Source of the DNA: Reclinomonas americana ATCC 50394
Lineage: Eukaryota
Reading direction: 5' to 3'
DNA: 42,401 nt
Assembly (NCBI GenBank): GCA_048213135.1
Contig: PS015387.1
Coordinates: forward strand, 124,468 to 166,868
Made by a program: the position numbers and the translations under genes. Below the pieces are notes generated by a model, which was given only the letters and a program-made list of their open reading frames with translations, was not told the DNA's origin and did no database searches. Shown in pieces: positions 2,080 to 35,300 of the stretch (the first letter of the stretch is position 1; every line of letters starts with the position of its first letter).

Positions 2080-3586
2080 TTATGTCGCCGCCGCCGCCAC
2101 GGCGTTGGCCGGCAGCGTCTCCAGATGATGCGCCCATGCACCGCGCAAAAATGCCTCCATCTTTTGTGGCACTTGGTCGACCTCCTTGTAGCCGGGCAAC
2201 GCGTTGATGTCGATCACAAATGCCGTGCCTGTGCCCTTTTCGACAATCACATCAAAGCCAACCAGATCCAGCCCCTGCATTGAGCAAATATATAAATGCG
2301 TTGAGAAGCCTGGTCGACCACTCTCGTGCACATTTGCGGTACCGTTCGTCGACGCATCACGCGCGCTGTGTTGCGCACAACGTCCTCGTCGACGCTTGGC
2401 GCCGTGACACTGCCGTCTGCGCCGAGAGTGAGATCGGCAGCAAAGGGTTTCTGACTCTGGAAAGAAATCGGGTCGTGGGGTTGTTCGGCTGCGTCAACGC
2501 CTGTGAGCACGACAAGCACAAGAAAAAAAAGAAACACATCGCAGGGGCACACGTCGATCACCTGGTATGTCGTCGAGATTCTTCACCGACGCTCTGCGCG
2601 TGATTTCCACCACGTCGCCGATCACGTAGACCTTGAAAACCACCCCGTCGTGGTCGACAAACTGCTGTGTCAGGAACGGGTAATCCCATGACTGCAACTC
2701 GGTGAACAGCTGCGCCTCGTTGAACACAATGGCCATGCGATGTGCGTTCTCCGTCACCGATGCCTCAAGCGCCTTGCACACTGCACACGTGCAAGTCGCG
2801 TGAGCGAGAGGAGAAAACATACGGTGACGAAAAAACATATGCGCACCCACGGGATAGTGAAGCGACAGGCCATCGATTTGAAGTCGGTGGCGAGCATGTT
2901 GAATGCCCTCAAACATGAAATACTCGGGAACGCGCAAGCGATCGTTCCCTGCACACACTCAACGTGAGGAGACGCAGAGGAGCTTTCTCCCACATGCATA
3001 CGCACTCGCTCACCGATCTCGTTGCAAATCGCCTGCAACTCAGCGTACAGAGTCTCTCGGCGAAGAGTGAGCTGCACGCCAGCGAAGCGATTGACGACAA
3101 GCAGTCGTGGATGACGAGCGACGTACGCCTGAAACCACTCGATGAGCCCATAGCAGAGGGAGAGAGAGAGAGAGAGGGTGGGTGGGCGACGCACTTCAAT
3201 CGTGGCCACACGACGCTTGGCCTCGTCCACCCCGAGCGACGACATGACCAGGTCGTCGTTGATTTTGTGAATGAGAATGTCGACCGACGGCAACTGCTCC
3301 ACCGGCAACGACAAGTCCAACATGTGACACGCCATCCCACGCGCAACACTGCCACACGCACGCACGCACACGCACACACACACACACGTGAGACTGCATG
3401 CACAATGCACTCTCTCTCTTCCCGCGCACTCATGTTCACTCAACACATGATCAATCAGAGGCTCAAACAGACGCTGCGACTTGCGCGGTGGCCTGCAGAC
3501 AGTGTGAGAGAAGAGTGTGCACAGAGTCGGTGAACGTGCATCACGCACCCAAACATGCCGAGGCGGAGCACAGCTTCGTGCGACAT
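2080..3586 (-). CDS. ITPK1: Inositol-tetrakisphosphate 1-kinase (ATP-grasp fold), multi-exon
   Basis: Spliced translation gives family motifs: DILIHK, YPVVCKALEAS..HRMAIVFN, QQFVDHDGVVFKVYVIGD, GLDLVGFDVIV, FVIDINALPGY. Confidence 0.92.
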
Positions 3587-4909: not shown

Positions 4910-7900
4910 TCACTCATTGTAGCCCGGAACTAGGTACTGTGGCAGTTCGCGCACACTGGCCACCAAAAAGTCCATCAGATCCTGCTGGATGAGCAACGAC
5001 GTCTCTTTGCTGATGGAGCTCACGAGCTCTTGCTTTTGTGCCGGGGTCAGCTGCGGGGGCGATAGACGAAGCAGGTCAGAATGAGCACAAAGAGCCGCCT
5101 TCCACAAGGTGTCGACAGACCTCGGTGGACTGAGCACCAATCAGCCGCTCTGCACGTTTCCTCAAGTGCTGAATGTCGGGCTGTGTGGAGACGTGCGCCT
5201 CCATCCGAGCTCGGAATTCGGGGAACCGATCGTGATACAGAGCGTACGCCCAGTCTTGTCGGAAGAAGCTGCACGAGGCACAAAAACCCATGTCAGCAGC
5301 GATGCATACCTACTCCCTCCAGCACAGCACGCAACGAGATAAAGTCGTCAATGACACCCTCGTCGAACTGGTCACACAGGTTGTTGATGTACTTTTCGGG
5401 GAGGCCCACCAGCGCCTGCAGGTTCCACACCTCGACCATGTCGCGACCAAAGTACGTGATGCCTTCCACGCGACCGGCTTGCGACGTGTACACTGCGCAG
5501 TAGCGACGCGAGGCCGAGTCCGCACCCGTACATCGCTTCTTGCAGCTAATGGATCCGTGAAGCAAGCCGAGCGAGCCCATGTGGAACAGAATGTGCCCGC
5601 CTGCACAACGAAAGTGAGATCGGAGTGGCAACCAGACACACATGCAACAATCCACTACCAACCAGGCAGTTTGCAGTACAGCGACTTGGGCTTGGTGAAC
5701 ACGGGAATGCTGGAGAACGCAGACCGCTGTCGCTCGTCTTCCTCCTCAATGACGGCATCGGGGTCGAAGATCGGCAGCAGCACCCGCGCCAACTGCCAGA
5801 AGAATTCGTCAGCAAGCGGGACGAGCAACACAAAGGGGCGCGACTGCGCACCTTTTGCCCCACTTCTCGCGCATTGTAGAGCTCGAGGAACTGAGATGGA
5901 CCGTACTGGCGGGAGAATCGTACCAACGGACCAGAGGCAAAGCTGCGTGCGATAGGAAAACACGGCAGGTCACTCACACAGTACTGCACACAGCGACAAC
6001 AAGCAAAGCACCACAAACATTGTGGGATCGGCGGTCTTGAACTCCGGATCCACGACCAGACGACCGTCAAACACAATCGAACTCTGCGTGGCTGCGCGCA
6101 GAATATCTTGATCTCTGTGGCCGGACGCGTGTAACAATAANNNNNNNNNNNNNNNNNNNNNNNNNNNNNNNNNNNNNNNNNNTGACGGCCACTCCTCCTT
6201 GATAAAGTGCCGCAGATTGCGGATTTGGGAGCCACGCACCAAGTTGTACAGGCCACTATCCTGCGCGGTGAACCACACAATCCCCCGGTCATGTGTTGAG
6301 AAGGCAGGAACAATGCAGCTCAATGGAGAAAGAGCAGTGACGAACAGGCAGCCCCTCGATTGTGCGCAAAAAGGTGGGACTGAAGGTGAATTGCAGGCCG
6401 GTGGCCATCACCAGGTAATCGTACGCAATGGAGCCGCCGCGCTGTAGGATGACGCGCTTCTTGTCACGGTCGAGCTTCTGCATCTTGTCCTTGACCACCA
6501 GCATCTTGGAGCCGTCGTGGAAAATGGTGTACCTAACAAGCGCGTTGTCGATCGATCAGCACGTGACATCCAGTCGCACAAGCCGCTGGTACGCAACTCT
6601 TGCATGAGGAACGGATAGCTGCTCGGGAAGAAGCTCTCCTCCGTCAGCGTCGGATACGGTGGCAGCCCTTCGGGTGACAGCAGCGTCACGCCAGTGAACG
6701 CCGAATCGGCAATCTGCAGGCAGCAACAACGACGACAATATACCCATGAGCATGAGCAGCGAATCACTTAAAGACAAGCCGCACATTCCACAATCGACAA
6801 ACCATGAGCAGTGTGTGGATAAACGCCAGTGCAGTGTCCGAGGCACCCACGACAACAATGCGAGCGTGCACCGCCACCTGAGCGGGGGAAGTGAGCCACA
6901 AAGACGCGTACACGCACACATGCACTCCCTCCGGGCACACACACCTTTTCCTCACTCAGCAGACGCTTGTTCACACAGTAGCCGACACTATTCGACGAAT
7001 TCGTATCGACAAAGTCCGTCACCTCCGGGTCCAGCACAAGAGTTCTGTGAACGGCATTTTTTGTGCCAAAACATGAGAAAGTGGAGGTTAATGCACAAGC
7101 AGGCAGCGGAGCACGAAACTGACGACGCGGGGACAAAGCAATGAGCTCCTGCGACATGTGCAACACACGGGTGCCGACTTGCCACTCGTAGTACAGCAGA
7201 GTCTTGTTGAGCACACGCAAAATCTCCTGCTCGACAATGAGAGTATGAGCACGAGAGAGTGACAGTAAGATTACGCAGCGCTGCTCCTCGTACCTTCAGA
7301 ATGAAGCGCGTCTTGAAGTGATACACAGGGTTCACGGTGAGCAGTGGGACCACACACAGCTCGCGGTCCGAGTACAGAGACGTGTCCATGTACTTGGCGG
7401 TGTCGTATCGAGCTTCCCAGTCGTACGCTTTCGTGTCGACGTTGGCCACACACGCACCGACCACCACACCTTGACAGAGCACAATCAGACACTCGTGGGA
7501 CGCCGACGGGCGCGCAATGGTCGACTGGAACATTGAAATGTTTTCGGCCGACTCCTGCGACGACGACGATACCGTGAGTACAATCGCACCCACACGCAGC
7601 AAGCAGTGCGACACCTCAACACAAAAGACGACTCACATGCACTTTCTCGTAGAAAGCGCTCATGAGAGCGGCATCCGCGGAGGTGGCTCGTCGCACACTA
7701 ATCGGGCGCGCAAGTGCGTAGCGGTGGTGCACGAATAGCGCGCTGCCATATAGGCTGCCAGGGTACGCCACGGCGCGGTTGAACTGCTTGAGGAACGGGA
7801 ACTCGGGCGTCGTGTACGGCACCGTCAGCAGCAGGAAGTTGCAGGTGGGGAACAAGTCGTAGGCGGCCGGCAAGAAATCGACAGCACGCGACTCGAAGCC

Positions 7901-9120
7901 CTCGCGCATGCAAAACAGCGAGATGCGGAAAATGTTGTCACGACCGACGGCGGTTTCATCGTGCTGCCGCGCCGCCGGCGCTCGCAGGAAATTGTCGTAC
8001 ACCGACAGGTCAAACGACTGCACCAGATTGGCCAAATCGTCGACGACACACGTCACCGCCAAGATGCCGACAAACTCGCCGTCGCGCTGCGCCACTAATA
8101 CAAAGTGTTCGTCGTCTTGGCTCTCCAACAACGACGCCAGGTAGAGATTGTCGTGTCGCGGTCCCACCACCGGCAAATCCTGGTTGAGCAACGGCAACAA
8201 ATCGTCGTAGTCCTCGACGTAGCCTCGGCGCAGCGTCAGCTTCGGCACAAGCCTCTCGCGATTGCAGCGGTACACCACACAGCGACGCGCATCGGCGCCC
8301 TCACCCAGCTGCAGTTGCGTCAACTGCGTGCGACGGAGAAGAAAAGGAGGAGGAGTAGAGAGAGAATGAGTTCATCTTTGTCTCAGAGCGCAACGCCCCA
8401 TCCACACCCCTCGTACCTCCTCAAAGTATCTGGCCTGCAGGCCCTGGAAAGGCGGCGCGTCGTACACGGACATGATCAGCAGATCGTCGACCAGCGGCAA
8501 CGTCTCAAACACCGACGACAGCACAGTCTGCGTGACTGCATTGCGCCACTCGGGCTCCGCCACCAGGAACGTCAACCACAGCACCGACTCCGCCTGTGAC
8601 CGCAGCGTGAGCGCACGCGCACACACCACAGCGCGTCTGCAGCACATCACAACGCAACATCAAACTCAAAGTCTCGGCACTGTTGTCGCAGTTTGGCCTC
8701 CCACGACACCGAGTCCACTCCACCCGAGTTGACATGCAACTGTGGGTAGTCGTTCAAGCATGCCGCGCCCACCACTCGGCCGTCCTCATTCAACGCCGCC
8801 ACTCCCATGAACGAGTGCTCACTGCACAAACGACAGATCAGTCACAAGATGAGCACAGTCAATCCATTTCCCCCACGCAACATGAGCTGGCCCATGTCTC
8901 TGACAAAGCCGAAGCGTGGCACAAACGCAAAGTCGGACTCGGCCAACAGCGCCACCGCATCGGCGTCGGCCAGCGCCGCACGACGCACAATCACCTCGCC
9001 CTCGACAGCAAACGCTTCATACGAGTCGACGCCACCGCCTCCATCCGCGCTGTCGTCGAATCCACTGTCACCGGCCAGCTCACGCGCAGCCACTTCCTCG
9101 GCCGACAGAAACTCAGCCAT
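4910..9120 (-). CDS. CFAP61: Cilia- and flagella-associated protein 61 (small N gap at 6141-6182 inside the gene)
   Basis: Recognisable segments: LTLRRGYVEDYDDLLPL, NIFRISLFCMREGFESRAVDFLPAAYDLFP, RIVVVGASDTALAFI, YDYLVMATGLQF, RLVVDPEFKTADP, YNAREVG, LVGLPEKYIN, WAYALYHDRF. Ends PGYNE*. Confidence 0.9.
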
Positions 9121-9219
9121 TGTTACGCGCAAAGAAACAACGGAAATGGACAGATTGCGCTGCGCGAGCGCGATTGTGCCTAGCTGCTTTTGCTTCGTAT
9201 CGTTCTTGCTTGTGCTGGC

Positions 9220-10332
9220 ATGGAGTGGCTGGAACGGGCAGCGGATCGCGTCCGAGTTGGTGTTCTGTTTGTGGCGCACGAGGCGTTTGGGTTGAAGCCG
9301 GAGCAGATTCCGCGCGGTGTGGAGACGGGCGTGTTGCTGCTGGCGGGAGCGGGATTGGCGCTGGGAGGGCGGGCCTTGGTGCAGCGAGTTGCGCACGAGG
9401 CACAATCATGGTGTGCGCATTCGGCTCTTGACTGTGGAGTGTGTGTTTTGATGCAGATGAGGCACTTCCGGACGGTGGCGGATTTGCCGCCGGCGGTGTT
9501 CAGCAAGCAGCAGGTGCTGCGGGGCGTGGTGACCAAGGTTCCCGACGGGGACAACTTTCGCATGGTACACACCCCACCACTGTGGTGGTTGCGCAGGCGT
9601 TTGTCTCCCTCGAAAAGCGGGACTGGTGAGTGCGATTGGTGTCTCTTTGTGATCTTCTCATCATCACACACGCGCACCGCAGCCTCCGATTCCACCATGC
9701 ACGTCCGATTGGCGGGTGTGGATGCCCCCGAGCAAGGTTGGTTTGGGAAGGAGGCGCAGCCATTCGGCAAAGAGGCGAGGCAGTGGCTTGAAGGTTTGCG
9801 ATAGTCGACACGATTCTCAAGATCTCTCTCTCACGCTCGCCTCACCCTGGAAACAGACTACCTGTTGAACAAGAGTGTGCACGTTCAGATCCACGCGCGT
9901 GATCAGTACGGGCGGGTGGTGGCTTCTGTGTGGACCCGCAAGGTATCGCTTGAGTCGTCGCAAGTCGCGTTGTGTGACCGCACTGGGCTCACCACCGTCG
10001 GGCTGGCACTTTTTGCAGGGTTGGCTGCGGCGTCTAAAAAACGTGTCGGAAGAGATGGTGAAAGCTGGCCTTGCGTTCACGTACACGTCGGCAGGAGCTG
10101 AGTACGGACCATTTTCGCGAGAGCATTTTGAAAAGTTGGAGAACTCGGCACGACAACAGCGTCGGGGAGTATGGGTGCAGAAGAAGGTATCTGAGTTGCA
10201 TGTGCGCGAGTCAATGGCATCTTGAGTACTCACCACGTGATTGCGTGCGCCCGGCAGGTGGAGCATCCCGCCGACTACAAGAAACGTCTGAAGGAGAGCA
10301 GCCCCGCAAGCAGCAAGCGTGCAGAAGGCTAA
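9220..10332 (+). CDS. Staphylococcal-nuclease (thermonuclease) domain endonuclease, LCL3-like, with N-terminal hydrophobic segment
   Basis: Motifs VTKVPDGDNFRMVHTP, VRLAGVDAPE..FGKEAQPFGKEARQWL, RDQYGRVVA, NVSEEMVKAGLAFTY, ARQQRRGVW, EHPADYKK. Confidence 0.88.
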
Positions 10333-11368: not shown

Positions 11369-11636
11369 GCCGAATTCCACAAAGGAAACGAGAAAGATAG
11401 CAAGAGGTGTTGGTGTCAGAACACATAGGGAAAACCAACAAAGCCAGGCAACATGCAAGTTAGGTGTCAGTTGAGTGGTTGTCGCTGATGATGGTGTTGC
11501 TCACGGGAGTTGTCACTGCCGCCTGTTGATTCTGGCAACGGCACCGCAATGCGCCGACCAGATGTAATGGTCGTGGCGCGCAGCGCAGCTGCACAGTTTC
11601 GACAGCAATTGCAAGCGATCCGTGTCATCACTGCTT
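11369..11636 (-). mobile_element. 3' fragment (end of ORF plus 3' UTR) of an RLE-type non-LTR retrotransposon; continues into the N gap
   Basis: The reverse complement matches 12466-12750 closely, with a few indels. It encodes ...SSDDTDRL(QL)LSKLCSCAARHDHYIWSAHCGAVARINRRQ*. Confidence 0.7.
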
Positions 11637-12219
11637 CGTTTTTTGTTTCCTGTTCTCCCTCGGCCGGTGCTGTGGTCCATCTCTGGTGTGTACATCGGTG
11701 GGTATGCTACGCATACTAGTTGTTAGAGGGCTTGCCCTTGCGCATGCCTTCGATCGCGAATTCGACGCGACAAATGCATTCAAAATTAAACCAATCTCTG
11801 CGATCGAAATTCGAATCCATTTCTAAGCCAGCTCTCTTCTCTTTTCTTGTGATGCATGCCGTGCGGCGATGTTGACGGTTTCGACTAACGCGATTGTCGT
11901 CTTGTTGCCTTAACATGATTTGCGCGCGGGCGGGGGCGTGTTAACTCGCACACGGATTTGACCCCTAGCGTCGTTTTTGCGAACTTGCGTTCTAAGCAAC
12001 AGCGCCCATGCTGAAACATTTTGCGCCACGAAATCCTTTTGAGGCCATCACGCGTTTGATTGGCTTTGTCTCCTGAAAGGGAAGATGTCTGTTGGAGAAG
12101 ATTTATCAATGTGTTGATTATTGTTGGTGTGCCAATAATGGTCATCGTCGGCAAGGGATTTGTGGACATTTGTCGCATTATTGGAATGTGGTGAATGAAG
12201 TGTTTTTCTCCTATAAATT

Positions 12220-12914
12220 CATGGCCGACGTTACTGTGGCGTATGCCGCTGACGGACGTCTACAGGATGACAAGAAGAGCTCGCTGGAGACGGCTGCTGG
12301 AAAGAAAAAGGAGAAGTACCGCGATTTGGTGCGTGCTGTCGAGCAACACACGCAGAAACGCGTTGTCTTCTACACACTGGTGTTTGGCTCCGGCGGCATC
12401 GTCCCGAAACGGACTGGTGAAAACGTGGCCGACTTGGTGTATGGCCGTTCACCTCAGGAGCGTCAAAGCAGTGACGACACGGATCGCTTGCTGTCGAAAC
12501 TGTGCAGCTGTGCCGCTCGCCACGACCATTACATCTGGTCGGCGCATTGCGGTGCCGTTGCCAGAATCAACAGACGGCAGTGACAACTTCCGTGAGCAAC
12601 AACAACAACACCATCACCAACAGCAACCTCTCAAGTGCATGTCAGTTCCTTCCCGGACTTGCTTGCATGTTGCCTGGCTTTGTTGGTTTTCCCTATGTGT
12701 TCTGATACCAACACTTTGCTATCTTTCTTGCTTCCTTTTTGGAATTCGGCGTCAAATCCATGCTTGTCATGAGCCGTGGTTTCTCTTGCAGAAACGCCAG
12801 CATTAGCCATCTCGACTTTTTCTCGCTTTTTTTCGTGATGTCTGAGTTTCTGGTGCTCACTCAAGATGGTGATCATCATGCAGCTTGCTGTTTGGATTAG
12901 TAAAGTTGTTGTTG
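12220..12914 (+). mobile_element. 5'-truncated RLE-clade (R2/NeSL/CRE-like) non-LTR retrotransposon: restriction-like endonuclease C-terminal half, 3' UTR, putative (GTT)n tail
   Basis: ADVTVAY...LETAAGKKKEKYRDL...VVFYTLVFGSGGIVP fits the DVTV / KxxKY / GxxG pattern of RLE domains. The upstream PD motif and the RT are absent. GTTGTTGTTG at 12905-12914. Confidence 0.7.
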
Positions 12915-13868
12915 AGCTGTATAAATCGACTTTCACTGCGACCGACCAAACCGCTTCATTTCCGGGGGGGTGNNNNNNNNNNNNNNNNNNNNNNNNNNNN
13001 NNNNNNNNNNNNNNNNNNNNNNNNNNNNNNNNNNNNNNNNNNNNNNNNNNNNNNNNNNNNNNNNNNNNNNNNNNNNNNNNNNNNNNNNNNNNNNNNNNNN
13101 NNNNNNNNNNNNNNNNNNNNNNNNNNNNNNNNNNNNNNNNNNNNNNNNNNNNNNNNNNNNNNNNNNNNNNNNNNNNNNNNNNNNNNNNNNNNNNNNNNNN
13201 NNNNNNNNNNNNNNNNNNNNNNNNNNNNNNNNNNNNNNNNNNNNNNNNNNNNNNNNNNNNNNNNNNNNNNNNNNNNNNNNNNNNNNNNNNNNNNNNNNNN
13301 NNNNNNNNNNNNNNNNNNNNNNNNNNNNNNNNNNNNNNNNNNNNNNNNNNNNNNNNNNNNNNNNNNNNNNNNNNNNNNNNNNNNNNNNNNNNNNNNNNNN
13401 NNNNNNNNNNNNNNNNNNNNNNNNNNNNNNNNNNNNNNNNNNNNNNNNNNNNNNNNNNNNNNNNNNNNNNNNNNNNNNNNNNNNNNNNNNNNNNNNNNNN
13501 NNNNNNNNNNNNNNNNNNNNNNNNNNNNNNNNNNNNNNNNNNNNNNNNNNNNNNNNNNNNNNNNNNNNNNNNNNNNNNNNNNNNNNNNNNNNNNNNNNNN
13601 NNNNNNNNNNNNNNNNNNNNNNNNNNNNNNNNNNNNNNNNNNNNNNNNNNNNNNNNNNNNNNNNNNNNNNNNNNNNNNNNNNNNNNNNNNNNNNNNNNNN
13701 NNNNNNNNNNNNNNNNNNNNNNNNNNNNNNNNNNNNNNNNNNNNNNNNNNNNNNNNNNNNNNNNNNNNNNNNNNNNNNNNNNNNNNNNNNNNNNNNNNNN
13801 NNNNNNNNNNNNNNNNNNNNNNNNNNNNNNNNNNNNNNNNAACGTACTCTCTCGTGTCGGACGTGTCG

Positions 13869-13922
<54 letters not shown>

Positions 13923-15225
13923 CGTGTGTGTGTGTGCGTGTGTTGTGTGTGTGTGTTGTTCCTCAAAATTCCACTCACGCGATGCACTCTCATCTTTCGC
14001 TCACACATACACACAATAGACTACCCTCTGCACCTCAGGTAGTAGTTCCCGCACAGAAGAGGGAGAGCGGCACGCTGAATGACGAAAGCAGTAGACGAAA
14101 ATGGGCGGGAAAGGTGAGAAACGCACGAAACTGTCGCATTTCGCAGTAACACGCAGCGAGTGTGTTCACCACGCAATACGAGAGTACATTCTCAACTAGT
14201 GTGTGAGGGCGTTTTTTTCTTTTCTCGTGTGTGTGCGCGGGAAAACGAGGAATGCACAAAGATGTGCGTGAACCGCCTCTCCTCTCCCACTCAACAAAGT
14301 GCATGTGTGCGTGCGTGCGTGCGTGTGAGAGAGAGCACATATATGCGAACGTGAACGCCTCAAGATAGTGTGTGCAGAGAGTCCAGATTAAATGTGCGCG
14401 CGTGTGTGCGAGAAGAAATGACGTTACTCAACTTGAGAGTGCGAAATGCGTCGCAAGTGCGACCACCCACAACAGCAGGAGTGCTGCGAGCGGAATGTGT
14501 AGCACACGAGCACTTCGTGAGTGCTTGACCATTTTGTTGCGTGTTCTCTGCGTGGCAAGGCAAACGGAAGTGGTCGGAAATGGGGGGTGGNNNNNNNNNN
14601 NNNNNNNNNNNNNNNNNNNNNNNNNNNNNNNNNNNNNNNNNNNNNNNNNNNNNNNNNNNNNNNNNNNNNNNNNNNNNNNNNNNNNNNNNNNNNNNNNNNN
14701 NNNNNNNNNNNNNNNNNNNNNNNNNNNNNNNNNNNNNNNNNNNNNNNNNNNNNNNNNNNNNNNNNNNNNNNNNNNNNNNNNNNNNNNNNNNNNNNNNNNN
14801 NNNNNNNNNNNNNNNNNNNNNNNNNNNNNNNNNNNNNNNNNNNNNNNNNNNNNNNNNNNNNNNNNNNNNNNNNNNNNNNNNNNNNNNNNNNNNNNNNNNN
14901 NNNNNNNNNNNNNNNNNNNNNNNNNNNNNNNNNNNNNNNNNNNNNNNNNNNNNNNNNNNNNNNNNNNNNNNNNNNNNNNNNNNNNNNNNNNNNNNNNNNN
15001 NNNNNNNNNNNNNNNNNNNNNNNNNNNNNNNNNNNNNNNNNNNNNNNNNNNNNNNNNNNNNNNNNNNNNNNNNNNNNNNNNNNNNNNNNNNNNNNNNNNN
15101 NNNNNNNNNNNNNNNNNNNNNNNNNNNNNNNNNNNNNNNNNNNNNNNNNNNNNNNNNNNNNNNNNNNNNNNNNNNNNNNNNNNNNNNNNNNNNNNNNNNN
15201 NNNNNNNNNNNNNNNNNNNNCTCAC

Positions 15226-15259
<34 letters not shown>

Positions 15260-15293
15260 GTCTCTCTCTCTGTGCATGTGTTGCGTTAACCAG

Positions 15294-18200
15294 GAATCAC
15301 AAAATCCGCAAAATTACCGCCGCCGGAATCGTCTCCAACTTTGCCGGCTCTGGCACAGCCGGTGGTACGAACAATACCGGAACCATGGCCACATTTAACA
15401 GGTTCTGTTGTTGATCTGCGGTGCAACTCGTACGCTGCCTTTCATAAGTTCTCACTGCGGTGAGGAAGCTACATAGGCCCTCGTTTCTCTACATTGACCG
15501 CTCGACGGACACGATCTTCACGTTCGATGTGCGTCGTGCACCAGCTGTCAGCTGCTGCTCTCGCTCCCTGTCACGCTGAATTCTCATCTTTGCTTCCTCG
15601 CAGCAATTCGGATTCAGAGTTCGTACAATCACGTCTTCCGCGACAACAGCCACGCTGGCGGGCGCAGGCGTCAGTGGAAGCACCGACGGAATGGGAACCT
15701 TGGCAAAGTTTGGTTCAGGTGTCACTGGAGGATGTCTGGATACGACCAACCAAGTTCTTTATGTTGCCGATCCTGGTAACAAAACGATTCGCTCGGTACG
15801 ATGTACATGCACATTTCCTTGTTGCCCTCATTGTCTCACTTCTTCTTTTGTTTGCAGGTGACGTACGCCGGCAACGTGGTCAGATACTGCGGTGTCCAGG
15901 GAACGACTGGCACCACTGACGGCAGTTGCACTGTTCCAACTGCCAGGTTCACTACGCCTTCCGGCATGACGATTAAAGGGACGACCTTGTACGTTGGTAC
16001 GTATGAAGTGAACCGCCCACTTCGGATCTCATATGTGAACTAGACTCAATTCTCCGCACGCGCAGCGGATAGAGGCACTCACTCCATCCGCGCCATCGAC
16101 ACGACCACTCTCAACGTGACCACGTACGCCGGCTCCACGAGCAGTCTATCCGGGACGAGCAACGGCATCGGTACGTTTGCTTAATTGCTTCCTGATTTGC
16201 CCATCCTGCATCTGACGCACGTGCAACACAGGCACCTTGGCGAGATTCAACGCCCCGTTTAGTATCCTCTACGAGTCGAACCTGGACGCTTTCTTCGTCG
16301 CTGATGTTGCGTGATCCGATGCGTGTGGTCGTGTTGAGAAGGGACCGGTGTCTGACGTTGCCTGCGTGCAGCAAAACAACGGTGCGATTCGCATGATCCG
16401 TGCAAGTGATACTCTCGTGTCCACATTTGCTGGATTACCTGGCACTACCGGCCAGGTAGACGGCCCGGCAATCGGGACTGGCCGCATTAGCAATCCGGTG
16501 CGATGATAGTTTTGAGTCTGTTGTTCTCTTGCTTTTGTCGAGTCGCTCACAACCTGCGTGGCATGCATGCAGACTTTCATGGTGGTTGAGTGGGCCAACT
16601 CTCGCCTGGTGTTCACCGACCAAAACCAGCACATTATCCGCCGAGCGTCATTTGGCGGCGTGCGAGCGACGGCATCTCCGTCCACGTCCACCGGCTCGTC
16701 TCCCGTGTCCATCTCGGCTTCCGTTGCGGGTCTAATCTCGGGCAGGACATACTACTATGCGCCGGTGGCCACGACATCGACGCCAAGCACGGTGTACGGC
16801 TCGGTGCTGACGTTCGCTGCCGGTACCAACGTCGCACCCACTGCCTTGTCTTGCTCACCTCTCGGCTACGTCTCTCCATCGACCGCCAACACCAACATTT
16901 GCACCATGTCGCCGACGGATGCAAATTCTGGTCAGACCTACACGTACTCGGTGACTGGCGGAGCCGACATGGCCTCGTTTACAACGAGTGGCGCGATTCT
17001 GCGACTGGTGCCAGCTGGTATCACCAGCGCTTCATTGGTGGTGTCGGTGACTGTCACCGATAACGGTGGACTCTCGTACGCGGCAACGTTTACCATCGGT
17101 ACGTGTTTTTTCTGCCATCAAGTGTCTCCCTTGCCACTGAGAAAGCGCCTCTCGCTGACGCTCGTGTGACGTGCCTATGCAGTGCGCAACCAGGCGCCAA
17201 CGGCCGTAAGCTTGTCGCCCGCGAGCTACGTGTCACCGAGCACCGTCAACCAACTCATTGGCACCCTGAGCACCACCGACGGCGACATGGGTCAGACGTA
17301 CACATACTCGGTGGTCGGTGGCGCCGATGCTGCTTCGGTGATCATCTCCGGTGGCAACCAGCTGCAGTTCGCAGTCGCCGGCGTCACCAGCACCATGACA
17401 GTCATTGTTCGGACGACTGACAATGGATCGCCAGCGGCAACGTACGACCAAACATTCACTATTGCCAGTGCGTTTCTGTGTTTCTTTGCATCGCTCTGTG
17501 ATCGTTGAGTCACTCAGTCATCTGTGCACCTCGTTTTCAATCGTGCAGCTGGCGCGGGAAATAGCGCCCCCACCGGCGTATCTCTCACTGTGTCGTCGTA
17601 TGCACCTCCGAGCACCGTCAATCAAGTGATTGGCACGTTGAGCTCCACCGATCCGGACGTCGGCCAGACGTTCACCTACTCGGTGGTCGGTGGCGCCGAC
17701 GCCGCGTCTGTCACCATTGCCAGTGGTAATCAGCTGCGATTTGCCGCCGCCAGCGTCACGAACAACTTGACAGTGATTGTGCGGACGACGGACAACGGCG
17801 TGCCAGCACTTTCGTTTGACCAGACTCTGACGATTACAGGCAAGTATTAATCTCAACAAGAGGCGAGCTCGTAACTGATGCTGATCGACCTTCTGTTGTG
17901 CAGCGCAAAACAACGCACCAACTGATATTGTGCTGTCGGCAACGACGTACGCGCCGCCAAGCACGACGAATCTCGTCGTTGGCAGTCTGTCGACCACAGA
18001 TGTTGATAGCAGCTGGCAGTCGTACACGTATACGATTGTGGGTGGCGCAAATGCCGCCACGTTCAACATCTCTGGCACGCAGCTGCGAATCACAGCAGCA
18101 GGCGTCACCGGTGGTGGGTATTTGGTGACTGTGCGTTCGACGGACAACGGCAATGGCTCGCTGTTCTTTGACAAAACATTCACAATCAACGAAGGTCTGT

Positions 18201-19062
18201 CGTCTTTTTCGCGTAACTTGATTGTCATTGTAGTTCTTATGCGTCGTGTGGCAGCCAATGCTGCACCGACGGATATCGCACTGTCGGCGACGACATACAC
18301 GCCGCCGACTACTGCCAATCTCGTGATTGGTACTCTGTCGACCACCGATGCCAACTCTGGCCAGACGTTCACGTACACGATCGTGGGTGGAGCGAATGCA
18401 GCCATGTTCAACATCTCGGGCGCGCAGCTGCGCATCACGACAGCCGGACAGAATGGAACGGGCTTGGTGGTGATTGTGCGATCGACTGACAGCGGCAGTG
18501 GATCGCTGTTCTTCGATAAGACATTCACAATCAATGAGGGTCTGTGATTGTACTTAACAAAAGTCTCCTTTCTTCAGCTGTTTCTCACTTCTTTGCCTGT
18601 CCCCCCCCCTGTCCAGTTAATGTTGCGCCGACGGACATTGCACTGTCGGCGACGACGTACACGCCACCGACCACGGCCAATCTCGTGATTGGCAACCTGT
18701 CGACAACAGACGCCAACTCGGCTCAGACGTTCACATACGCGGTTGTTGGCGGAGCCAATGCGGCCATGTTCAACATCTCGGGCACGCAGCTACGCATCAC
18801 GACGGCCGGGCAGAATGGAACTGGCTTGGTGGTGATTGTGCGATCGACGGACAACGGCAGCGGATCACTGTTCTTCGAGAAGACATTTACGATCAACGAA
18901 GGTCTGTGTCCCTACTTGGCAACGTCTCCATTCCTCAGCTGTTTCTCACTTCCTTGCCTTCTTCTATCGATCAGTGAATGTTGCACCGACGGACATTGCA
19001 CTGTCGGCGACGACGTACGCGCCGCCAACCACTGCCAATCTCGTGGTAGGCAATCTGTCGAC
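15294..19062 (+). CDS. Large surface/adhesin-like protein (both ends lost in gaps): NHL beta-propeller repeats, FN3-like segment, at least 7 cadherin-like domains
   Basis: NHL: NHKIRKITAAGIVSNFAGSGTAG, LYVADPGNKTIR, ARFTTPSG, ARFNAPFSI, FFVADQNNGAIR. FN3-like: ASVAGLISGRTYYYAPVA...YGSVLTF. Cadherin-like consensus: NxAPTDIALS..IGTLSTTDxxxxQTFTYxIVGG.NAAxFNISGxQL..VIVRSTDNGxGSLFFDKTFTI. Confidence 0.85.
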
Positions 19063-19331
19063 NNNNNNNNNNNNNNNNNNNNNNNNNNNNNNNNNNNNNN
19101 NNNNNNNNNNNNNNNNNNNNNNNNNNNNNNNNNNNNNNNNNNNNNNNNNNNNNNNNNNNNNNNNNNNNNNNNNNNNNNNNNNNNNNNNNNNNNNNNNNNN
19201 NNNNNNNNNNNNNNNNNNNNNNNNNNNNNNNNNNNNNNNNNNNNNNNNNNNNNNNNNNNNNNNNNNNNNNNNNNNNNNNNNNNNNNNNNNNNNNNNNNNN
19301 NNNNNNNNNNNNNNNNNNNNNNNNNNNNNNN

Positions 19332-19332
<1 letters not shown>

Positions 19333-19366
<34 letters not shown>

Positions 19367-19721
19367 CACACACACAATGCAGAGGCAAAGACACGAACGC
19401 AAAATGCACACCTGCACTCCTCTTCCTCCGGCTCACTCGCTCTCACTCTCTCTCTCTCTCTCCCTCTCTCTCCCTCTCTCACTCACACACACACATGCAC
19501 ATTATGCACAGAGACAAAGAAAAAACGCAAAATGCACACTGCACTCCGCGCACTCGCTCTCACTCTCTCTCTCTCTCTTTCACCTCTCTCTCTCTCTCTC
19601 TCTGACACACACACACACACATGCACAATATGCACAGAGACAAAGACACGAACGCAAAATGCACACCTGCACTCCTCTTCCTCCGGCTCACTCGCTCTCA
19701 CTCTCTTTTTTCTACACACAC

Positions 19722-19760
<39 letters not shown>

Positions 19761-19815
19761 TGCACATCACACCTCCACTCCTCTTCCTCACGCTCACTCA
19801 TCTCACTCTCTCACA
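19333..19815. repeat. Degenerate tandem repeat of roughly 120 bp interleaved with (CT)n/(CA)n
   Basis: Three copies of a core like cagagacaaagacacgaacgcaaaatgcacac..ctcgctctcactct, lying between two N gaps. Confidence 0.7.
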
Positions 19816-20519: not shown

Positions 20520-20908
20520 CTTCTTCCCCGACAAAATGCACAACGCCTCCGTATCAATCGCCTTGGAGCCGCGCACCGCACGCTCCACCAACCGCGAAAT
20601 CTCCACCGTCAACGCCGTCGCCGACTCGCCCGCAATAATCGCCGGCGACGCCATCGCCGAAATGTGCGTGTGAAACGACAGAAATCCCTCCGCCGGTCGC
20701 GCCAATTCCGGTTCCACAACCGCCGCAGTCACCACGGAAATCACTCTGTGAAAATTAAAGTGAGTGCGTGAGTGTGTGTGTGACAAGTGCACATGCACAT
20801 CACCAACCCACTCGTGACACAAACAAAAATGCACTCTTTCTTTCTCTGTCGCGGAGGGTGTGTGATGGATGAGGCAAAGATAAAGTTGCCGGAAGTCGAT
20901 GAAGGGAA

Positions 20909-20940
<32 letters not shown>

Positions 20941-21394
20941 CAATGCATGAATGCTTGTGTGTGTGCATGAGAGAGAGAGAGAGAGAGTCTGAGAGGAGGA
21001 ACATGCACACACACCCTCACAAACTCACGAATGCGTGAGATAAGGCTGACCAGTCTCACTCTCACAAAGTCTCTCTCTCACACGTGCGAGTGTGTGACAA
21101 GGCCGCTTTCGATGACAGCAACAAAGCACTGAGCCTCCCAAACACGCTTAAAGTGTGCATTAGGCGAAGGATAAGTCGCCGCGGGTGACGGATGAACGCA
21201 CATACATACATACAGAGAGTGAGAAGGATCGCCCACACATGCATCTTTCCTTGCACTCTCTCTCTCTCTCTCACACGCACACACACTCACTCACACACAC
21301 ACGCACACAATGAGAGATCATGCAGCATCATTCTCACCCACTCTCGCATGCGCAGAGAGAGAGAAGAGAGCTCATTCCCTTTCTCACACACACA

Positions 21395-21449
<55 letters not shown>

Positions 21450-21804
21450 TCACTCACTCACTCACTCACTCTCTCACACACACACGCACAGTCTCTCTCT
21501 CACGCACATACACACAGTGCATCCTTCTCCCCCACTCTCTCCCTCTCTTCTCCCCCTCTCTTCTCCCCCTTTACCCCTTCCTCCCCCCTTTCCTCCTCTC
21601 CTCCTCTCTTCCCCCTCACCTCGTCCTCCCCAGCTGCACCTCCACATGCCCTCTCTTGCTGGCAAACGACAGTCGAATCGCCCGATAGTCCAGCGGCCGG
21701 CGACCATCGCCGCGCACGGCCGCGGAGGAGCCGCTCGACGCATCGGCGCTCAGCAGCGCGTTGACGATAAAGTCGCGCTCGACTTGCGAGATGAGCTCTC
21801 TCAT
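20520..21804 (-). CDS. RRP45: Exosome complex component RRP45/EXOSC9 (first two exons; remainder lost in the gap)
   Basis: Exons 21804-21620 and 20745-20520: ERDFIVNAL..RGDGRRPLDYRAIRLSF..VEVQLGRTRV..PELARPAEG..SAMASP..RLVERAVRGSKAIDTEALCILSGKK. Confidence 0.9.
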
Positions 21805-22483
21805 GATACGGACGAAAGGGGATGGAGTGCAAGCCTGCAGGACACGGGGAGGGAGAGAATGTGTGGAGGAAAGAGAAAAGCGCGTCTGCATGGATAATGT
21901 GCTCTCACGCGCGTACGCTCCTTGGATCCTTGAGTGATGCAGCAGTGAACGTCGACATCCAGAGAATTACAAAACACTTCATTCACCACATTGCAAAAAT
22001 GCGATAAATGTCCGGATCCACAAATCCCTTGCCGACAATGACCTTACACCGCAATATACAAAACACATTATTGCTCTTCTCCAACAGTCATCTTCCCTTT
22101 CAGAAGGCACAGCCAATCAATCGCGTGTTGGCCTCAAAATAAGGATTTATGCAATTGAACCTTTATCAAATGTACATTTCTTCCAGAGGAACAGCAGTCG
22201 TTTGTGAATACAAACAAGAGAAGAACGGACAGATACAATTGGATTACGATTGTGACTGCTCCGTTCTTCTCTTCCAGAAACCTCAGTATACTAAACAGTA
22301 ACTATCACTGACATGTTGCCATGTGGTTTGGTTTTGTTCGATATCAAGCATGCCAAGCTGCTTTGATGCTCAAGTCCAACCATAGCACTTTGTTTGCTTC
22401 CCATGCACATCCACCAAGTCGATCGGCGCGTCACCGCAAGCATGTTCGCATTCATTTGCAATTTCAGCGTTTTCTCGCTCTGA

Positions 22484-23497: not shown

Positions 23498-24753
23498 TCA
23501 GCCTTCGCCAGCTTCGTTGTCGTGCAGTGGCGACCTCGGGTAGTTATAATAGTCGACGAAAGGAGACGGGGCCGGGGTGACGAGACCGAGCAGAGGGAAA
23601 TCAACTCCCGGAGACCTAGACCCCTCACATTCGGCTGCTCCGTTGGCGACAGGCGCTCGTACCTCGTCTCCGGCATCTGCAAGATCATCGGCGTTTCAAA
23701 TCGCTATCGGAATGCGTGAATAGGGAAAGCCATGCGTGGCGTGTGCGTCCTCACCGCCTTCGCGACTCTGATCTCCGACATCACCACTGTCCGTGGCCAT
23801 GGCCAACGGTGGTTCGTGCGCTGCATGCATCTGCTGCTGCTGCTGCTGCTGCTGCTGTTGGTGCTGTAGCTGTAGCTGTTGCTCTTGCTCTTGCTGGTAC
23901 TGTTGCTGCAGCTGTTGCGCATGCTGTTGCTGCTGTAGCTGCTGCTGCTGTAGCTGTTGCGCATGCTCTCGCTGCTGCTGGAGTTGGTGCTGCTGTTGCT
24001 GCTGTAGCTGTAACTGTTGCTGCTGAAGCTGTTGCTGTTGCTCTTGCTGCTGCTGTTGCTGTTGCTGGTGCCACTCGAAGTCGCCTGCTTCCACGCCAGT
24101 CGCGGTACTCGCACCGACACTCACTGGAGTCGTGATATCGATAATCAGAAACGCATTCCGGACAAATGCGGTACATGTTTGCAATCACCTGCGGCTGCAG
24201 AGCTCGCCGGCCCTTGAAACACGTCTCGCCAAGCGTCCACGCTCATGCCGAGTTGCTCCACGCGCGACTCGAAGTTGTCGTTCTCTCGTGCTCGACAGTT
24301 TGGCAGGCCGACGGACATTTTGAAGTACCGCCACGGGTCGTCTCGTGATCCAAGTCGCACGTTGTGGTGGCCGTACTTGAGCATGCATACACACTTGCCA
24401 GTTAGCACACACACACACATGCACACACCAGCACAAAAGACAGCGGCACAGCTGTGCATGCACCGCACGCGAATGTCACACACCCGGTACAGAAGCGTTC
24501 TCATCAGGAACTGGAGTTGCCGCAGGCGCGTCTTTTTCTTTTTCGGCCCCCCCACGGGTACGACACGGCGCTGGTTAGACCCAGGAGGAGCGTGTCCGTG
24601 CTGCGTCACTCTCTCAACGCCGCCGACTTCGCACATGATGAACAAATAGAGGACGATTGTCTTCATCCAATGCGTTACATCCAACTCCTGTGCCGTAAGC
24701 CTTCTTGCCAGTGCTGCGAGCTCGAGCTCGCGGTCTCTGTCATTCGACGCCAT
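23498..24753 (-). CDS. Orphan polyglutamine protein with NLS-like PKKKK (paralogue A of the same unrecognised domain)
   Basis: Exons 24753-24484, 24375-24189, 24123-23755, 23676-23498, all joined by in-frame GT-AG introns. Long imperfect CAG/CAA tract at ~23832-24068. Confidence 0.7.
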
Positions 24754-25352: not shown

Positions 25353-31965
<6,613 letters not shown>

Positions 31966-32383: not shown

Positions 32384-35300
32384 TTAGTTGCCGCCATTCG
32401 GCCAGCCCGGCTGGCGCGCACCATACTGCTGCTGCTGCTGTTGCGGCGGAGCAGCAAAGTACTGGCCCTGCTGGTAGAACGCAGCTGGGTTGGCCGGGTA
32501 GGCGGCGTACGCCTGGTGCGCTGCCGCGTGCGGGTGCTGGTGGTACTGTGCCGAGGCGTACGACGGCACAGCGGCGGCGGCGGAGCTGACCGAGGTCGCC
32601 GCGGGGGCGCCAGCGGCGGCATCCGAGCGCTTGCCCTGCTTGCCAGCGGCGGCCTGCGGTTGTTGTTGCTGCTGTCCCATCGCCATGTACGGGCTGCTCT
32701 GCGGCATGTAGTAGGGGTCCGCCTGTGGTGGGGAAGGGGGAAAAGGGGGAAGGGTGAGAAAAGGGAAAGGGTGATAGAAAGGGAAAGGGGGAGGAAGAGG
32801 GGAGAGAAGGGGAGCGGCGAATAAGGGGGAGTGGGAAGGGATAGGAACACAGGGAATGAAGAACTAAAAGAAAGAAGGGACAGGGACGGATGGGTGATAG
32901 AAAGGGAAGGGGGAGGACGAGGGGAAGAGAAGGGGAGCGGCGAATAAGGGGAAATGGGGAAGGGATAGGAACATAGGGCATGAAGAACTAAGAGAAAGAA
33001 GGGAAAGGGACGGGCGAGGTAGAGAAAATGAAGAAGAAGAAGAGGACAAAGGCAACGAATATACAGCACAAACACAGAGGTTCAAAGTGCAAGAATGACA
33101 CAGTCACAGACAGCGAGAACACAGAAAATCAAGCAAGTACACTCCAAAGCTTTCTCCCACTGTGTCTCACATGCCGCAACCCTCTCCTCTCCCTGCCTTT
33201 CGCATCACCAATCGTCAAGCACACGACTCTTCAAACCTATTTCACTCTCTCACAGACGCACATTATCTCTCTTCTCAAACACCCTTCTCCTTTCAAATCC
33301 CTACTCCGACATCTTATCTCCTTCTCCAACATCTTTCCCCTTCAATTCTCTTCTCCTACATCCTGCTCCTTTCTATTCTCATCCTCCATTATCCTTCCCC
33401 TGCCTAACCTCTTCTCCAACATTCTCCTCTGTCTATTCCCTTCTCCAACATCCTCCCGTTTCTCTCCCCTTCTTCAACATCCTTCCCGTTTCTATTCTCT
33501 TCTGCAACATCCTTCCTGTTTCTGTCCCCTTCTCCAACATCCCCCTCCTTCCAATCCCCTTCTCCAACATCCTTCCCGTTTCCATACCCTTCTTCATTAT
33601 CCTTCTCCTTTCCATTTTCTTCTCGAACATCATTCCCCTTCATTTCCCTTATCCATCATCCTTCCCGTTTCTATCCCCTTCTTCATCACTCTTCCCTTTT
33701 CAGTCCCTTTCTCCATCATCCTTCCCCTTTCTTTTCCCTGCCCCACTATCCTCCTCCTTTCCATCCCATTCTCCAGCATCCTTCCCGTTTCTATTCCCTT
33801 CTCCAACATCCTTCTCCCTTCTATTCCCCTTCCACCCCCTTCTTCCATTCCCTTCTCCTACTCACCGGCTGGTACGCATACTGATAGCTGGGCATATACG
33901 GGTATCCGTGGTAACCCACCGCGTAGCCCTGGCTCATCACCTGCGTCTGTGCCGCCTGGCTCGAGTCCACCGTCGCCGCGGCGGCTCCCGCGTGCGACAC
34001 GGCTGGCTGCGCCGGCTGTGCCGCCGCCATCATGGCTGCCGGGTGCTGCTGCTGGTGCGCCGCCGCCGGCTGCTGCGGGATTTGCGAGTAGCCGTAGTAG
34101 TCAAACGGTTGTTGCTGGAAGCCGTACGGCATCATCGGCAACATGCCAGTGAGGGCCGCCGCTGGCTGCTGCTGTGCGTGCAACTGCTGCTGTTGGTGCT
34201 GGGTCTGCAGCGCCGCCATTGGTTGCTGGTGCTGCAATTGCTGTTGTGCCTGTTGCTGCGCCTGTTGCTGCTGCTGTTGGGCGGCGGCAGCGGCGGCGGC
34301 AGCTTGTTGCTGTTGAGCTTGTGCCTGCTGCTGCTGTTGCTGTTGCAGGGCTGCGGCGGCCGCAGCATCAGCTGCCGCCTTCTCCTGCGCCTGCTTCAGT
34401 GACTCGGCGGCTGCCTGTGCCGCTGCAGCGGCCGCGGCCTGTTGCCGTGCGTCCTCCGCCGCTGCTGCTGCTGCTGCCGCTGCCTCGGCGGCTGCCTGGT
34501 GTTGCGCCGCAGCCGCGGCCGCCTTCTCCTCCTCGTGATGATGATCGGGCTCCGTCTGAGTCTGCATCTCAGTGGCTTGCTTGGCGGCAGCCTTCTCATC
34601 AAACGCGTGCAGGGGCTCCTCGGGACTGTACACGTTGCTGCACGGGGGAAGAAAAAGTGAGGGGGAGGGGAGGGGATTGGAAGGACGGAAAAGAAGACGC
34701 AACGCATGGCCAACACCGCCAAACTGCACATTGCTGTCATCCCATGTGTCGTCGAACGCCCATGTAACAACTGCGTGGCTCTCGTACGACTGGTGGTGGA
34801 TCGGATCTGGAATAGCAACCACTGCAGTGGGAGGGAGGTGAGCAAAACCATGCGGAGATCAAAGGGGGAGGAGGAGGAAGTGAAGCAAGACGCACATGCG
34901 GGTTCTGCGGCCCACGCTCTGGGTGCTCCCTCTCCAAACGCCGACAGGGGCTTGCCAATCGGCAATGGCTCAGGCACCGCAACAGGGGCCTCGAGAATGG
35001 GCTCGGGTGTGTACGGCTGAATGGGCTCGGGGACGTGGTGCATAATGGGTGGGGCCAACTGCGGCGGCTCAATCGACGACGGCAGCATCGCCGACGGTGC
35101 TGGCCGAGGTGCGCGACCGTGCGCTGCTGCTGGCGCCGCAGCAACAGCACTCTGTGGGCCCGCTGCTACCTGTGCAAATGACCGTCCCGAGTTGTTCCAC
35201 TTGTTCACTCGAGGTGCGGCCGGTGCGGCATCACCGGCGGCGGCAGCAGCTGCTGCTGCTGCTGGCTGTGCTGACTGTGCGCGCTCCTTTCGCGGTGCGT

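Follow-up and report, generated by a model that had tools for sequence, protein, structure and literature searches.

A spliced gene fragment between two assembly gaps

We analysed a stretch of 42,401 nucleotides (nt) from Reclinomonas americana ATCC 50394 (assembly GCA_048213135.1, contig PS015387.1), referred to below as the window, whose numbering is used for all positions. Positions 15294–19062 of its forward strand carry a fragment of a spliced gene that encodes an NHL-type beta-propeller region, a remnant of a fibronectin type III (FN3)-like module and a tandem array of cadherin-type repeats. These repeats have their closest relatives in bacteria, have lost calcium ligands and have multiplied in place under constraint. 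All features of the gene described here lie on the forward strand.

The interval forms one contig of the scaffold, flanked by runs of N at 14591–15220 and 19063–19331, and is read from position 15295 as 948 codons in 14 exons without a stop. Exons 1–7 (15294–15401, 15477–15528, 15604–15795, 15858–15996, 16066–16170, 16232–16305 and 16372–16497) and exons 8–14 (16573–17098, 17183–17467, 17549–17839, 17904–18194, 18255–18539, 18617–18901 and 18975–19062) are separated by 13 introns of 60–84 nt, of which 12 have GT-AG and one (17840–17903) GC-AG splice sites. Directly 3' of a (CT)n run, an AG acceptor precedes exon 1, which begins in phase 2. Without splicing, no long open reading frame (ORF) exists on either strand of the contig. 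The alignment of the 292 spliced residues to NHL proteins crosses all seven junctions of the NHL part, the sole gap near a junction being two residues in one of the two proteins aligned, and the junctions of the repeat part are backed by the repeat periodicity. Because exon 8 (16573–17098) encodes the last NHL blade, the FN3-like remnant and the first cadherin-type repeat together, the NHL and cadherin parts are two portions of the same gene, barring a misreading of this exon. A preliminary description of this DNA had named separate transcripts for the two parts as one of the findings that would refute its interpretation, and the shared exon argues against them.

Both ends of the gene are lost in assembly gaps. 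The upstream run of 630 N removes the 5' part, where any signal peptide would be encoded, together with at least part of a further NHL blade. The downstream run of 269 N removes the 3' part with further repeats and any anchor; no further cadherin-type repeat was found downstream of 19331 within the window. The spliced 948 amino acids (aa) are rich in threonine (17%), serine (10.5%) and glycine (10.4%), the bias earlier noted for the repeats, and poor in glutamate (0.6%) and lysine (0.8%). Nearly all of the charge is carried by aspartate and arginine. No transmembrane-like stretch occurs within the residues seen. A 504-nt contig from one public sequencing run (2012) aligns to 16585–17073 in exon 8 without gaps or joints and shows 17 differences there, many of them in the Ser/Thr-rich linker; at ~96.5% identity, it represents a second allele, a paralogue or another strain.

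Propeller, FN3-like remnant and cadherin-type repeats

The NHL-type region (15294–16653) spans exons 1–8 with seven introns and encodes five complete blades of ~56 aa each; of a sixth, only the first strand is present. The 5' gap removes the N-terminal part of the propeller, and a closed six-bladed state is not visible from what is left. A profile built from the blade exons matched 60,889 proteins of a representative library at E ≤ 0.001, and all 16 top matches that were scanned carry PF01436 NHL with 215–1162 bits. Over its full length of about 290 aa, the spliced region is 37–41% identical to NHL proteins (E 1e-36 to 7e-43).

Between the propeller and the first cadherin-type repeat lies a Ser/Thr-rich linker with an FN3-like remnant (16657–16815, about 53–55 aa), roughly half a domain. 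The motif GL.SGRTYYY..VA..YG..LTF, on which an FN3-like module had been proposed, is present at 16735–16815. The module itself is incomplete: the ~55 residues available fall short of a complete fibronectin type III domain (~90 aa, seven strands) and their match to an FN3-like module, seen ~14 times in the Polyangiaceae protein P0121, is confined to the C-terminal half of that module (49% identity over 55 aa, pairwise E 1e-7). Pfam returned no fn3 match for this part, only a weak hit to Pur_ac_phosph_N (E 0.065).

The array that follows contains at least seven tandem repeats of about 95 aa, as previously counted: six are complete (91–96 aa each, 52–91% identical to repeat 5), and the seventh is ended by the 3' gap after its first 28 residues. 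Repeat 1 (16825–17097) has its exon in common with the last NHL blade, and repeats 2–7 occupy one phase-1 exon apiece. Exons 9–12, each in phase 1-1, encode repeat 2 (17183–17467), repeat 3 (17549–17839, followed by the sole GC-AG intron), repeat 4 (17904–18194) and repeat 5 (18255–18539). Repeat 6 (18617–18901, exon 13) is identical to repeat 5 at 91% of protein and 86% of DNA positions, and the partial repeat 7 (18975–19062) forms exon 14. Tandem Repeats Finder detected no array at the DNA level; a separate DNA repeat search recovered the units at 63–85%.

Of 8000 proteins scored with a profile of the six complete repeats, 1083 matched at E ≤ 0.001. The 120 best matches listed are bacterial or metagenomic and all carry PF00028, and the organisms named among them are all bacterial (Rhodopirellula, Planctomycetaceae and other Planctomycetota; Flavobacterium and other Bacteroidota; some Alphaproteobacteria and Chloroflexota). 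Single bacterial cadherin domains align over the whole repeat at 49–56% identity with 65–82 bits, far above chance. Against the PDB, in contrast, the six repeats alone retrieved only a protocadherin (E 0.0032) and cadherin-23 (E 0.004) with 17–21 bits, which bears out the earlier view that the repeats resemble bacterial surface proteins more than metazoan cadherins. The nearest ESM Atlas clusters are likewise bacterial cadherin clusters. When ten bacterial repeats were added to the profile, it found 69 PDB sequences; all 60 shown are chains of the cadherin superfamily, with CELSR1 as the best (6.8e-27). An AlphaFold2 model of repeat 5 (predicted local distance difference test score 90.7, predicted template modelling score 0.82) shows seven strands and has the ~100-aa, seven-stranded Greek-key beta-sandwich of the cadherin superfamily. 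All PDB matches listed by Foldseek for this model are extracellular cadherin (EC) domains of cadherins or protocadherins (best E 4.7e-4, template modelling scores 0.64–0.76). Based on the scores to bacterial domains, the joint PDB profile and the Foldseek matches, we assign the repeats, as domains of cadherin fold, to the superfamily's bacterial branch.

Calcium ligands, growth of the array and residence in the host

The linkers of animal cadherins bind three calcium ions through the motifs xEx, DRE, DxNDN, DxD and xDx. Aligning the repeats to the 14 best bacterial domains showed where these ligands have been altered. The E-N pair after the first strand is kept in all 14 bacterial domains and reads S/P-P in the six repeats; the D-[FY]-E loop is kept in 13 (N-F-E in one) and is shortened in the six repeats, with no acidic residue left; a three-residue 'tgs' insert before D-N, present in most of the bacterial domains, is absent from the six repeats; and the linker is two residues shorter than in the bacterial reference. 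The motifs xEx and DxE are missing in all six. DxD is complete in repeats 2, 3 and 4 (DGD, DPD and DVD, respectively) and reads D-x-N in the other three, no LDRE-type motif occurs in the repeats and no DxNDN in any linker. This matches the earlier statement that DxD survives in three repeats and that LDRE is absent. The linker sequence NE-VNVAP given at the time describes the three youngest linkers, which read INE-A/V-N-A/V-AP, and does not hold for the older three, which differ. Two acidic residues, the Asp of TDxG and the leading Asp of DxD, are invariant throughout. Bacterial proteins that combine NHL and cadherin domains retain both the E-N and the D-x-E motif. As far as can be judged from these alignments, the repeats have fewer calcium ligands left than their nearest bacterial counterparts, an erosion that the preliminary description had suspected from the repeats themselves. 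Since whole ligand groups are missing, the canonical animal-type three-calcium linker is not possible under this scheme, and the stalk would not use it.

The history of the array was reconstructed from a FastTree phylogeny of 271 domains, which contained the six repeats and the two most similar domains from each of 134 proteins, all of the latter bacterial or metagenomic. All six repeats group together in a single clade (support 0.995), which divides into two sub-clades, repeats 1–3 and 4–6. At every repeat boundary an intron interrupts the same linker codon in phase 1. Introns 12 (18540–18616) and 13 (18902–18974) share 57 matches over 73–77 nt, with an alignment score of 33 compared to -1.5 ± 3.6 for shuffled sequences; they are thus homologous, and an exon-plus-intron unit was therefore duplicated in place. 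The older introns gave no alignment beyond composition. The ratio of nonsynonymous to synonymous substitutions (dN/dS) among pairs of repeats is 0.07 for the youngest pair, repeats 5 and 6 (dS 0.60, dN 0.04), and 0.15–0.37 for the others, which places the array under purifying selection; dS exceeds 1 and is saturated for most pairs. Clade support, shared intron phase, homologous introns and low dN/dS together show that the array grew inside the eukaryote.

These values also bear on whether the fragment is a relic in decay or a pseudogene that is not expressed. Neither start nor stop is in view, both ends being missing, and a search of sequencing runs found no RNA run that contains the stretch, as would be expected of such a relic. 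However, 948 codons in 14 exons are free of stops and frameshifts, every one of the 13 introns has GT-AG or GC-AG splice sites, and selection has acted on the youngest as well as the older repeats. We consider a pseudogene very unlikely.

The gene is resident in the host genome, as evidenced by its introns, the exon-plus-intron duplication, a host-like base composition and a scaffold-type microsatellite: its G+C content at third codon positions (GC3) of 0.67 falls within that of the neighbouring genes (0.56–0.80), and the (CT)n run at the 5' end of the contig resembles microsatellites elsewhere on the scaffold. Together with dN/dS below 1, these properties agree with the earlier characterization of the gene as domesticated. 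Contamination of the eukaryotic scaffold with bacterial DNA, or a chimeric assembly, could be suspected from the closest protein relatives, which are bacterial, and from the contig being joined to its neighbours only via N gaps. It is extremely improbable in view of the same composition and microsatellite, and we reject it because of the 13 spliceosomal-type introns, without which no long ORF is left. As a separate observation, the contig ends at the N gaps all bear (CT)n, (CA)n or related microsatellites (13841–14000, 15226–15271, 19332–19815, 20900–21530 and 30975–31230), which probably caused the breaks in the assembly.

Other genes of the window are an inositol 1,3,4-trisphosphate 5/6-kinase (2083–2958, reverse strand), the N-terminal domain of CFAP61 (7619–8371, reverse strand, 84 bits) and a staphylococcal-nuclease homologue (9184–10222, forward strand), which identify the host as a eukaryote with cilia or flagella. 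The search with the CFAP61 ORF matched a single database protein, from a chytrid, at 28% identity, a result that points to poor representation of this organism in public protein sets. A second, different NHL-repeat gene lies about 10 kb from the target gene on the forward strand (29363–30560, interrupted by a gap at 30653); it scores 35.7 bits to PF01436 on 30070–30560, with a weak match to TEN_NHL, and is 30–37% identical to the blades of the target gene over about 80–97 aa. Two copies of an element with inverted ends flank the contig of the target gene. The first, of ~1.3 kb (11407–12714), has 53-nt arms that are 98% complementary and 134-nt arms that are 90% complementary, and its internal ORF has no Pfam match; the second, ~10 kb off at 21971–22139, is partial, in opposite orientation and has arms of 43–65 nt (91–93%). 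The element is possibly a transposon. Long Gln/Ala-rich, low-complexity ORFs are found on the reverse strand at 23696–24184 and 33824–34858, the latter without a Pfam match.

Origin, putative function and comparison with known systems

The combination of domains has bacterial precedent. NHL and cadherin-type matches occur together in 10 of the 273 proteins compared, and all four of these that were scanned carry NHL and PF00028. In three proteins (P0258, P0252 and P0200), NHL precedes PF00028 cadherin, and a type IX secretion sorting domain forms the C-terminal end. The type IX tails mark them as surface proteins of the Bacteroidota type, and their domain order provides the precedent for an NHL-then-cadherin gene; the bacterial character earlier attributed to the domain mix is thereby supported. 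In the domain tree, the weakly supported sister group of the six-repeat clade (0.69) contains three proteins, two of which are metagenomic, carry RTX-type repeats and have the same shorter loop before the A-x-F motif. Contig scans with one very specific peptide pattern yielded six loci in genomes and five in metagenomes, at 39–62% identity and without a close relative of the repeats; over the full repeat, nothing in these scans exceeded 39–47%. Exon 8 as a query (175 aa) returned four proteins, none with the same architecture and none that is the product of this gene itself, and NCBIfam recognized only generic NHL and RTX-type families in the 13 matches searched.

We favour, with moderate confidence, the reading that the fragment is part of a resident, probably functional protist gene of bacterial-type origin, shaped by an old transfer, ligand loss and growth of the array in place. 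The cadherin repeats would descend from bacterial-type cadherin domains, the NHL part is probably of bacterial-type descent as well, and horizontal acquisition from a bacterium is the most likely source, judged by sequence similarity and a tree without eukaryotic cadherins. Several results weigh against this reading. The tree held no choanoflagellate, oomycete or animal cadherins, so that nesting within bacteria was judged among bacterial and metagenomic domains only, and with a sister support of only 0.69 no donor is identified. The protein collection contained no close relative of the host, and absent eukaryotic orthologues are weak evidence accordingly. Pfam gave no NHL match above threshold on any of the 13 single exons or ORFs, and its best Cadherin score was 18.2 bits, below the PF00028 cut-off of 28.8; this score was obtained on the only contiguous two-repeat ORF (17885–18544), in whose linker 20 residues are encoded by intron sequence. 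The number of N-glycosylation sequons (14) does not exceed expectation (15.3 ± 3.2) and lends no support to a secretory route, and both protein ends fall in gaps, so that neither signal peptide nor anchor is in view. The invariant Asp residues of the repeats may still form a partial calcium site.

The preliminary description had suggested a HMMER check of the domains, and single exons and ORFs gave no Pfam match above threshold to NHL, fn3 or Cadherin. The NHL blades are supported indirectly, by the profile of the blade exons. For the repeats, the shortfall notwithstanding, cadherin homology is shown in an indirect way, through bacterial relatives that carry PF00028 and through the 69 PDB sequences found by the joint profile.

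Two other origins have to be weighed. The gene might have been inherited vertically, as a member of an old and unsampled family of eukaryotic cadherin-repeat proteins that resemble bacterial ones, or might have been acquired from another eukaryote, in both cases without transfer from a bacterium. Missing orthologues mean little for this question, as the collections that were searched contain neither the host nor its relatives; the gene is evidently old, being fully intronised and saturated in dS for most repeat pairs; and cadherins have been reported in choanoflagellates and oomycetes (PMC2926784). A vertical family would, however, have to account for single repeats that are up to 56% identical to bacterial domains, about the distance between bacterial phyla, for the low scores of the repeats alone against metazoan cadherins in the PDB, for the bacterial or metagenomic affiliation of the 120 listed matches and for contig scans of genomes and metagenomes that found nothing closer. 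We regard this origin as unlikely.

Alternatively, only one part of the protein might be bacterial, with a native protist NHL propeller joined to bacterial cadherin repeats, or the reverse, by exon shuffling in the eukaryote. The second NHL gene in the window indicates that NHL propellers belong to the stock of this genome, all repeat exons are of the phase 1-1 type that favours shuffling, and the proteins that match best in the NHL part are not those that match best in the cadherin part. This last result also counts against our favoured reading as far as a joint transfer of both parts is concerned. The seam between NHL and repeat 1, which lies inside one exon with no intron there, speaks against shuffling, as does the NHL-then-cadherin order, which exists in bacterial proteins. 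Moreover, the propeller is closer to database NHL proteins (37–41% over 290 aa) than to the neighbouring NHL gene. We consider an origin by shuffling possible but doubtful.

Under the favoured reading of an acquired bacterial-type gene, an old transfer from a bacterium would have brought the gene into the protist lineage, where spliceosomal introns would have been gained after arrival. An ancestral repeat would have lost the Glu of xEN and the Asp-x-Glu ligands and taken up an intron, and the exon-plus-intron unit would then have multiplied in tandem under purifying selection. In the mature protein, the NHL propeller would act as a distal, ligand-binding head, and the cadherin-fold repeats, seven or more of them after the FN3-like remnant, would form a Thr/Ser-rich stalk or spacer whose stiffness is independent of the usual calcium sites. 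By analogy with the bacterial proteins, the product is most likely secreted, or anchored via the missing C-terminal end, and we infer a function as an adhesin or in prey capture. More tentatively, a whole bacterial NHL-cadherin gene may have been captured and rebuilt as a calcium-independent stalk that now serves as a surface receptor for prey bacteria or a substrate; we regard this fuller version as conceivable rather than likely. If it is true, cadherin-based adhesion would have originated here independently of the animal lineage. If transfer and surface role are real, a eukaryote would have adopted a bacterial adhesion module and remodelled it, gaining introns, giving up the calcium switch and lengthening the array through duplicated exons, a non-animal case for the debate on the source of cadherin-type adhesion. 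A natural cadherin array without canonical calcium sites could also be used to ask what calcium contributes to the rigidity of a stalk.

Among known systems, the closest are bacterial cadherin-domain surface proteins (PF00028 with PF17803) of Planctomycetota, Bacteroidota and Pseudomonadota, of which the repeats are full-length homologues (49–56% identity, 65–82 bits). Both share the signature N.APTDI.LS...G.LS.TD...FTY....G....F.I.G..L......V.VR.TD.G....F...FTI, and P0258, P0252 and P0200 share the order of NHL before cadherin with the target gene. Unlike these bacterial proteins, the target gene has 13 introns, lacks the E of E-N and the D-x-E loop, has a linker two residues shorter and forms its own clade; a bacterial sorting tail is not in view in the target, whose end is missing. 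Metazoan and choanoflagellate cadherins (classical cadherins, protocadherins, CELSR and cadherin-23) have the same fold, belong to the same superfamily and form tandem arrays of ~100-aa repeats. They differ from the target in having xEx, DRE and DxNDN, and the portion of the target seen has no transmembrane or cytoplasmic part. We know of no report of an NHL propeller as head domain in choanoflagellate cadherins, a point at which no search was aimed.

Calcium-free linkers are reportedly found in animal cadherins, namely Drosophila N-cadherin EC2-3 and protocadherin-15 EC9-10, where, as in the target, cadherin-fold repeats are joined without the full set of ligands. These are said to be single linkers within an otherwise calcium-bound array, whereas every linker seen in the target lacks the same ligand groups. 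The entries 3ubh and 5kj4 are among the Foldseek matches of the repeat 5 model. Teneurins contain NHL. A bacterial origin has been proposed for teneurins (PMC3278476).

Oomycete cadherins are, like the target, cadherin-repeat genes of a non-animal protist with a flagellate stage. The cadherins of Pythium ultimum are reported to keep LDRE and DxND, pass the Pfam thresholds and are contrasted as 'true' cadherins with bacterial cadherin-like proteins (PMC2926784); the repeats of the target have neither LDRE nor DxND and stay below the Pfam cut-off. The candidate transfers into Salpingoeca rosetta include cadherin and IPT/TIG domains, and their putative donors include Bacteroidetes and the Planctomycetes-Verrucomicrobia-Chlamydiae group (PMC7971027 and its preprint). 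Together with the origin proposed for teneurins, they show that modules of bacterial surface proteins have a precedent as parts of flagellated-protist genes with introns. Neither this NHL-cadherin architecture nor such a loss of calcium ligands appears in the compared parts of these sources (PMC7971027, PMC3278476). The observation made in the preliminary description is confirmed and its interpretation partly supported: the bacterial affinity, the domestication and the erosion of ligands stand, transfer and function are putative, and the term undescribed system was overstated, as the domains, the bacterial architecture and the transfer of cadherin-type domains from bacteria to protists (PMC7971027) have precedents. 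NHL propeller, cadherin repeat and FN3 are all known, as is the bacterial architecture, and the gene is a variant, not a new kind of system.

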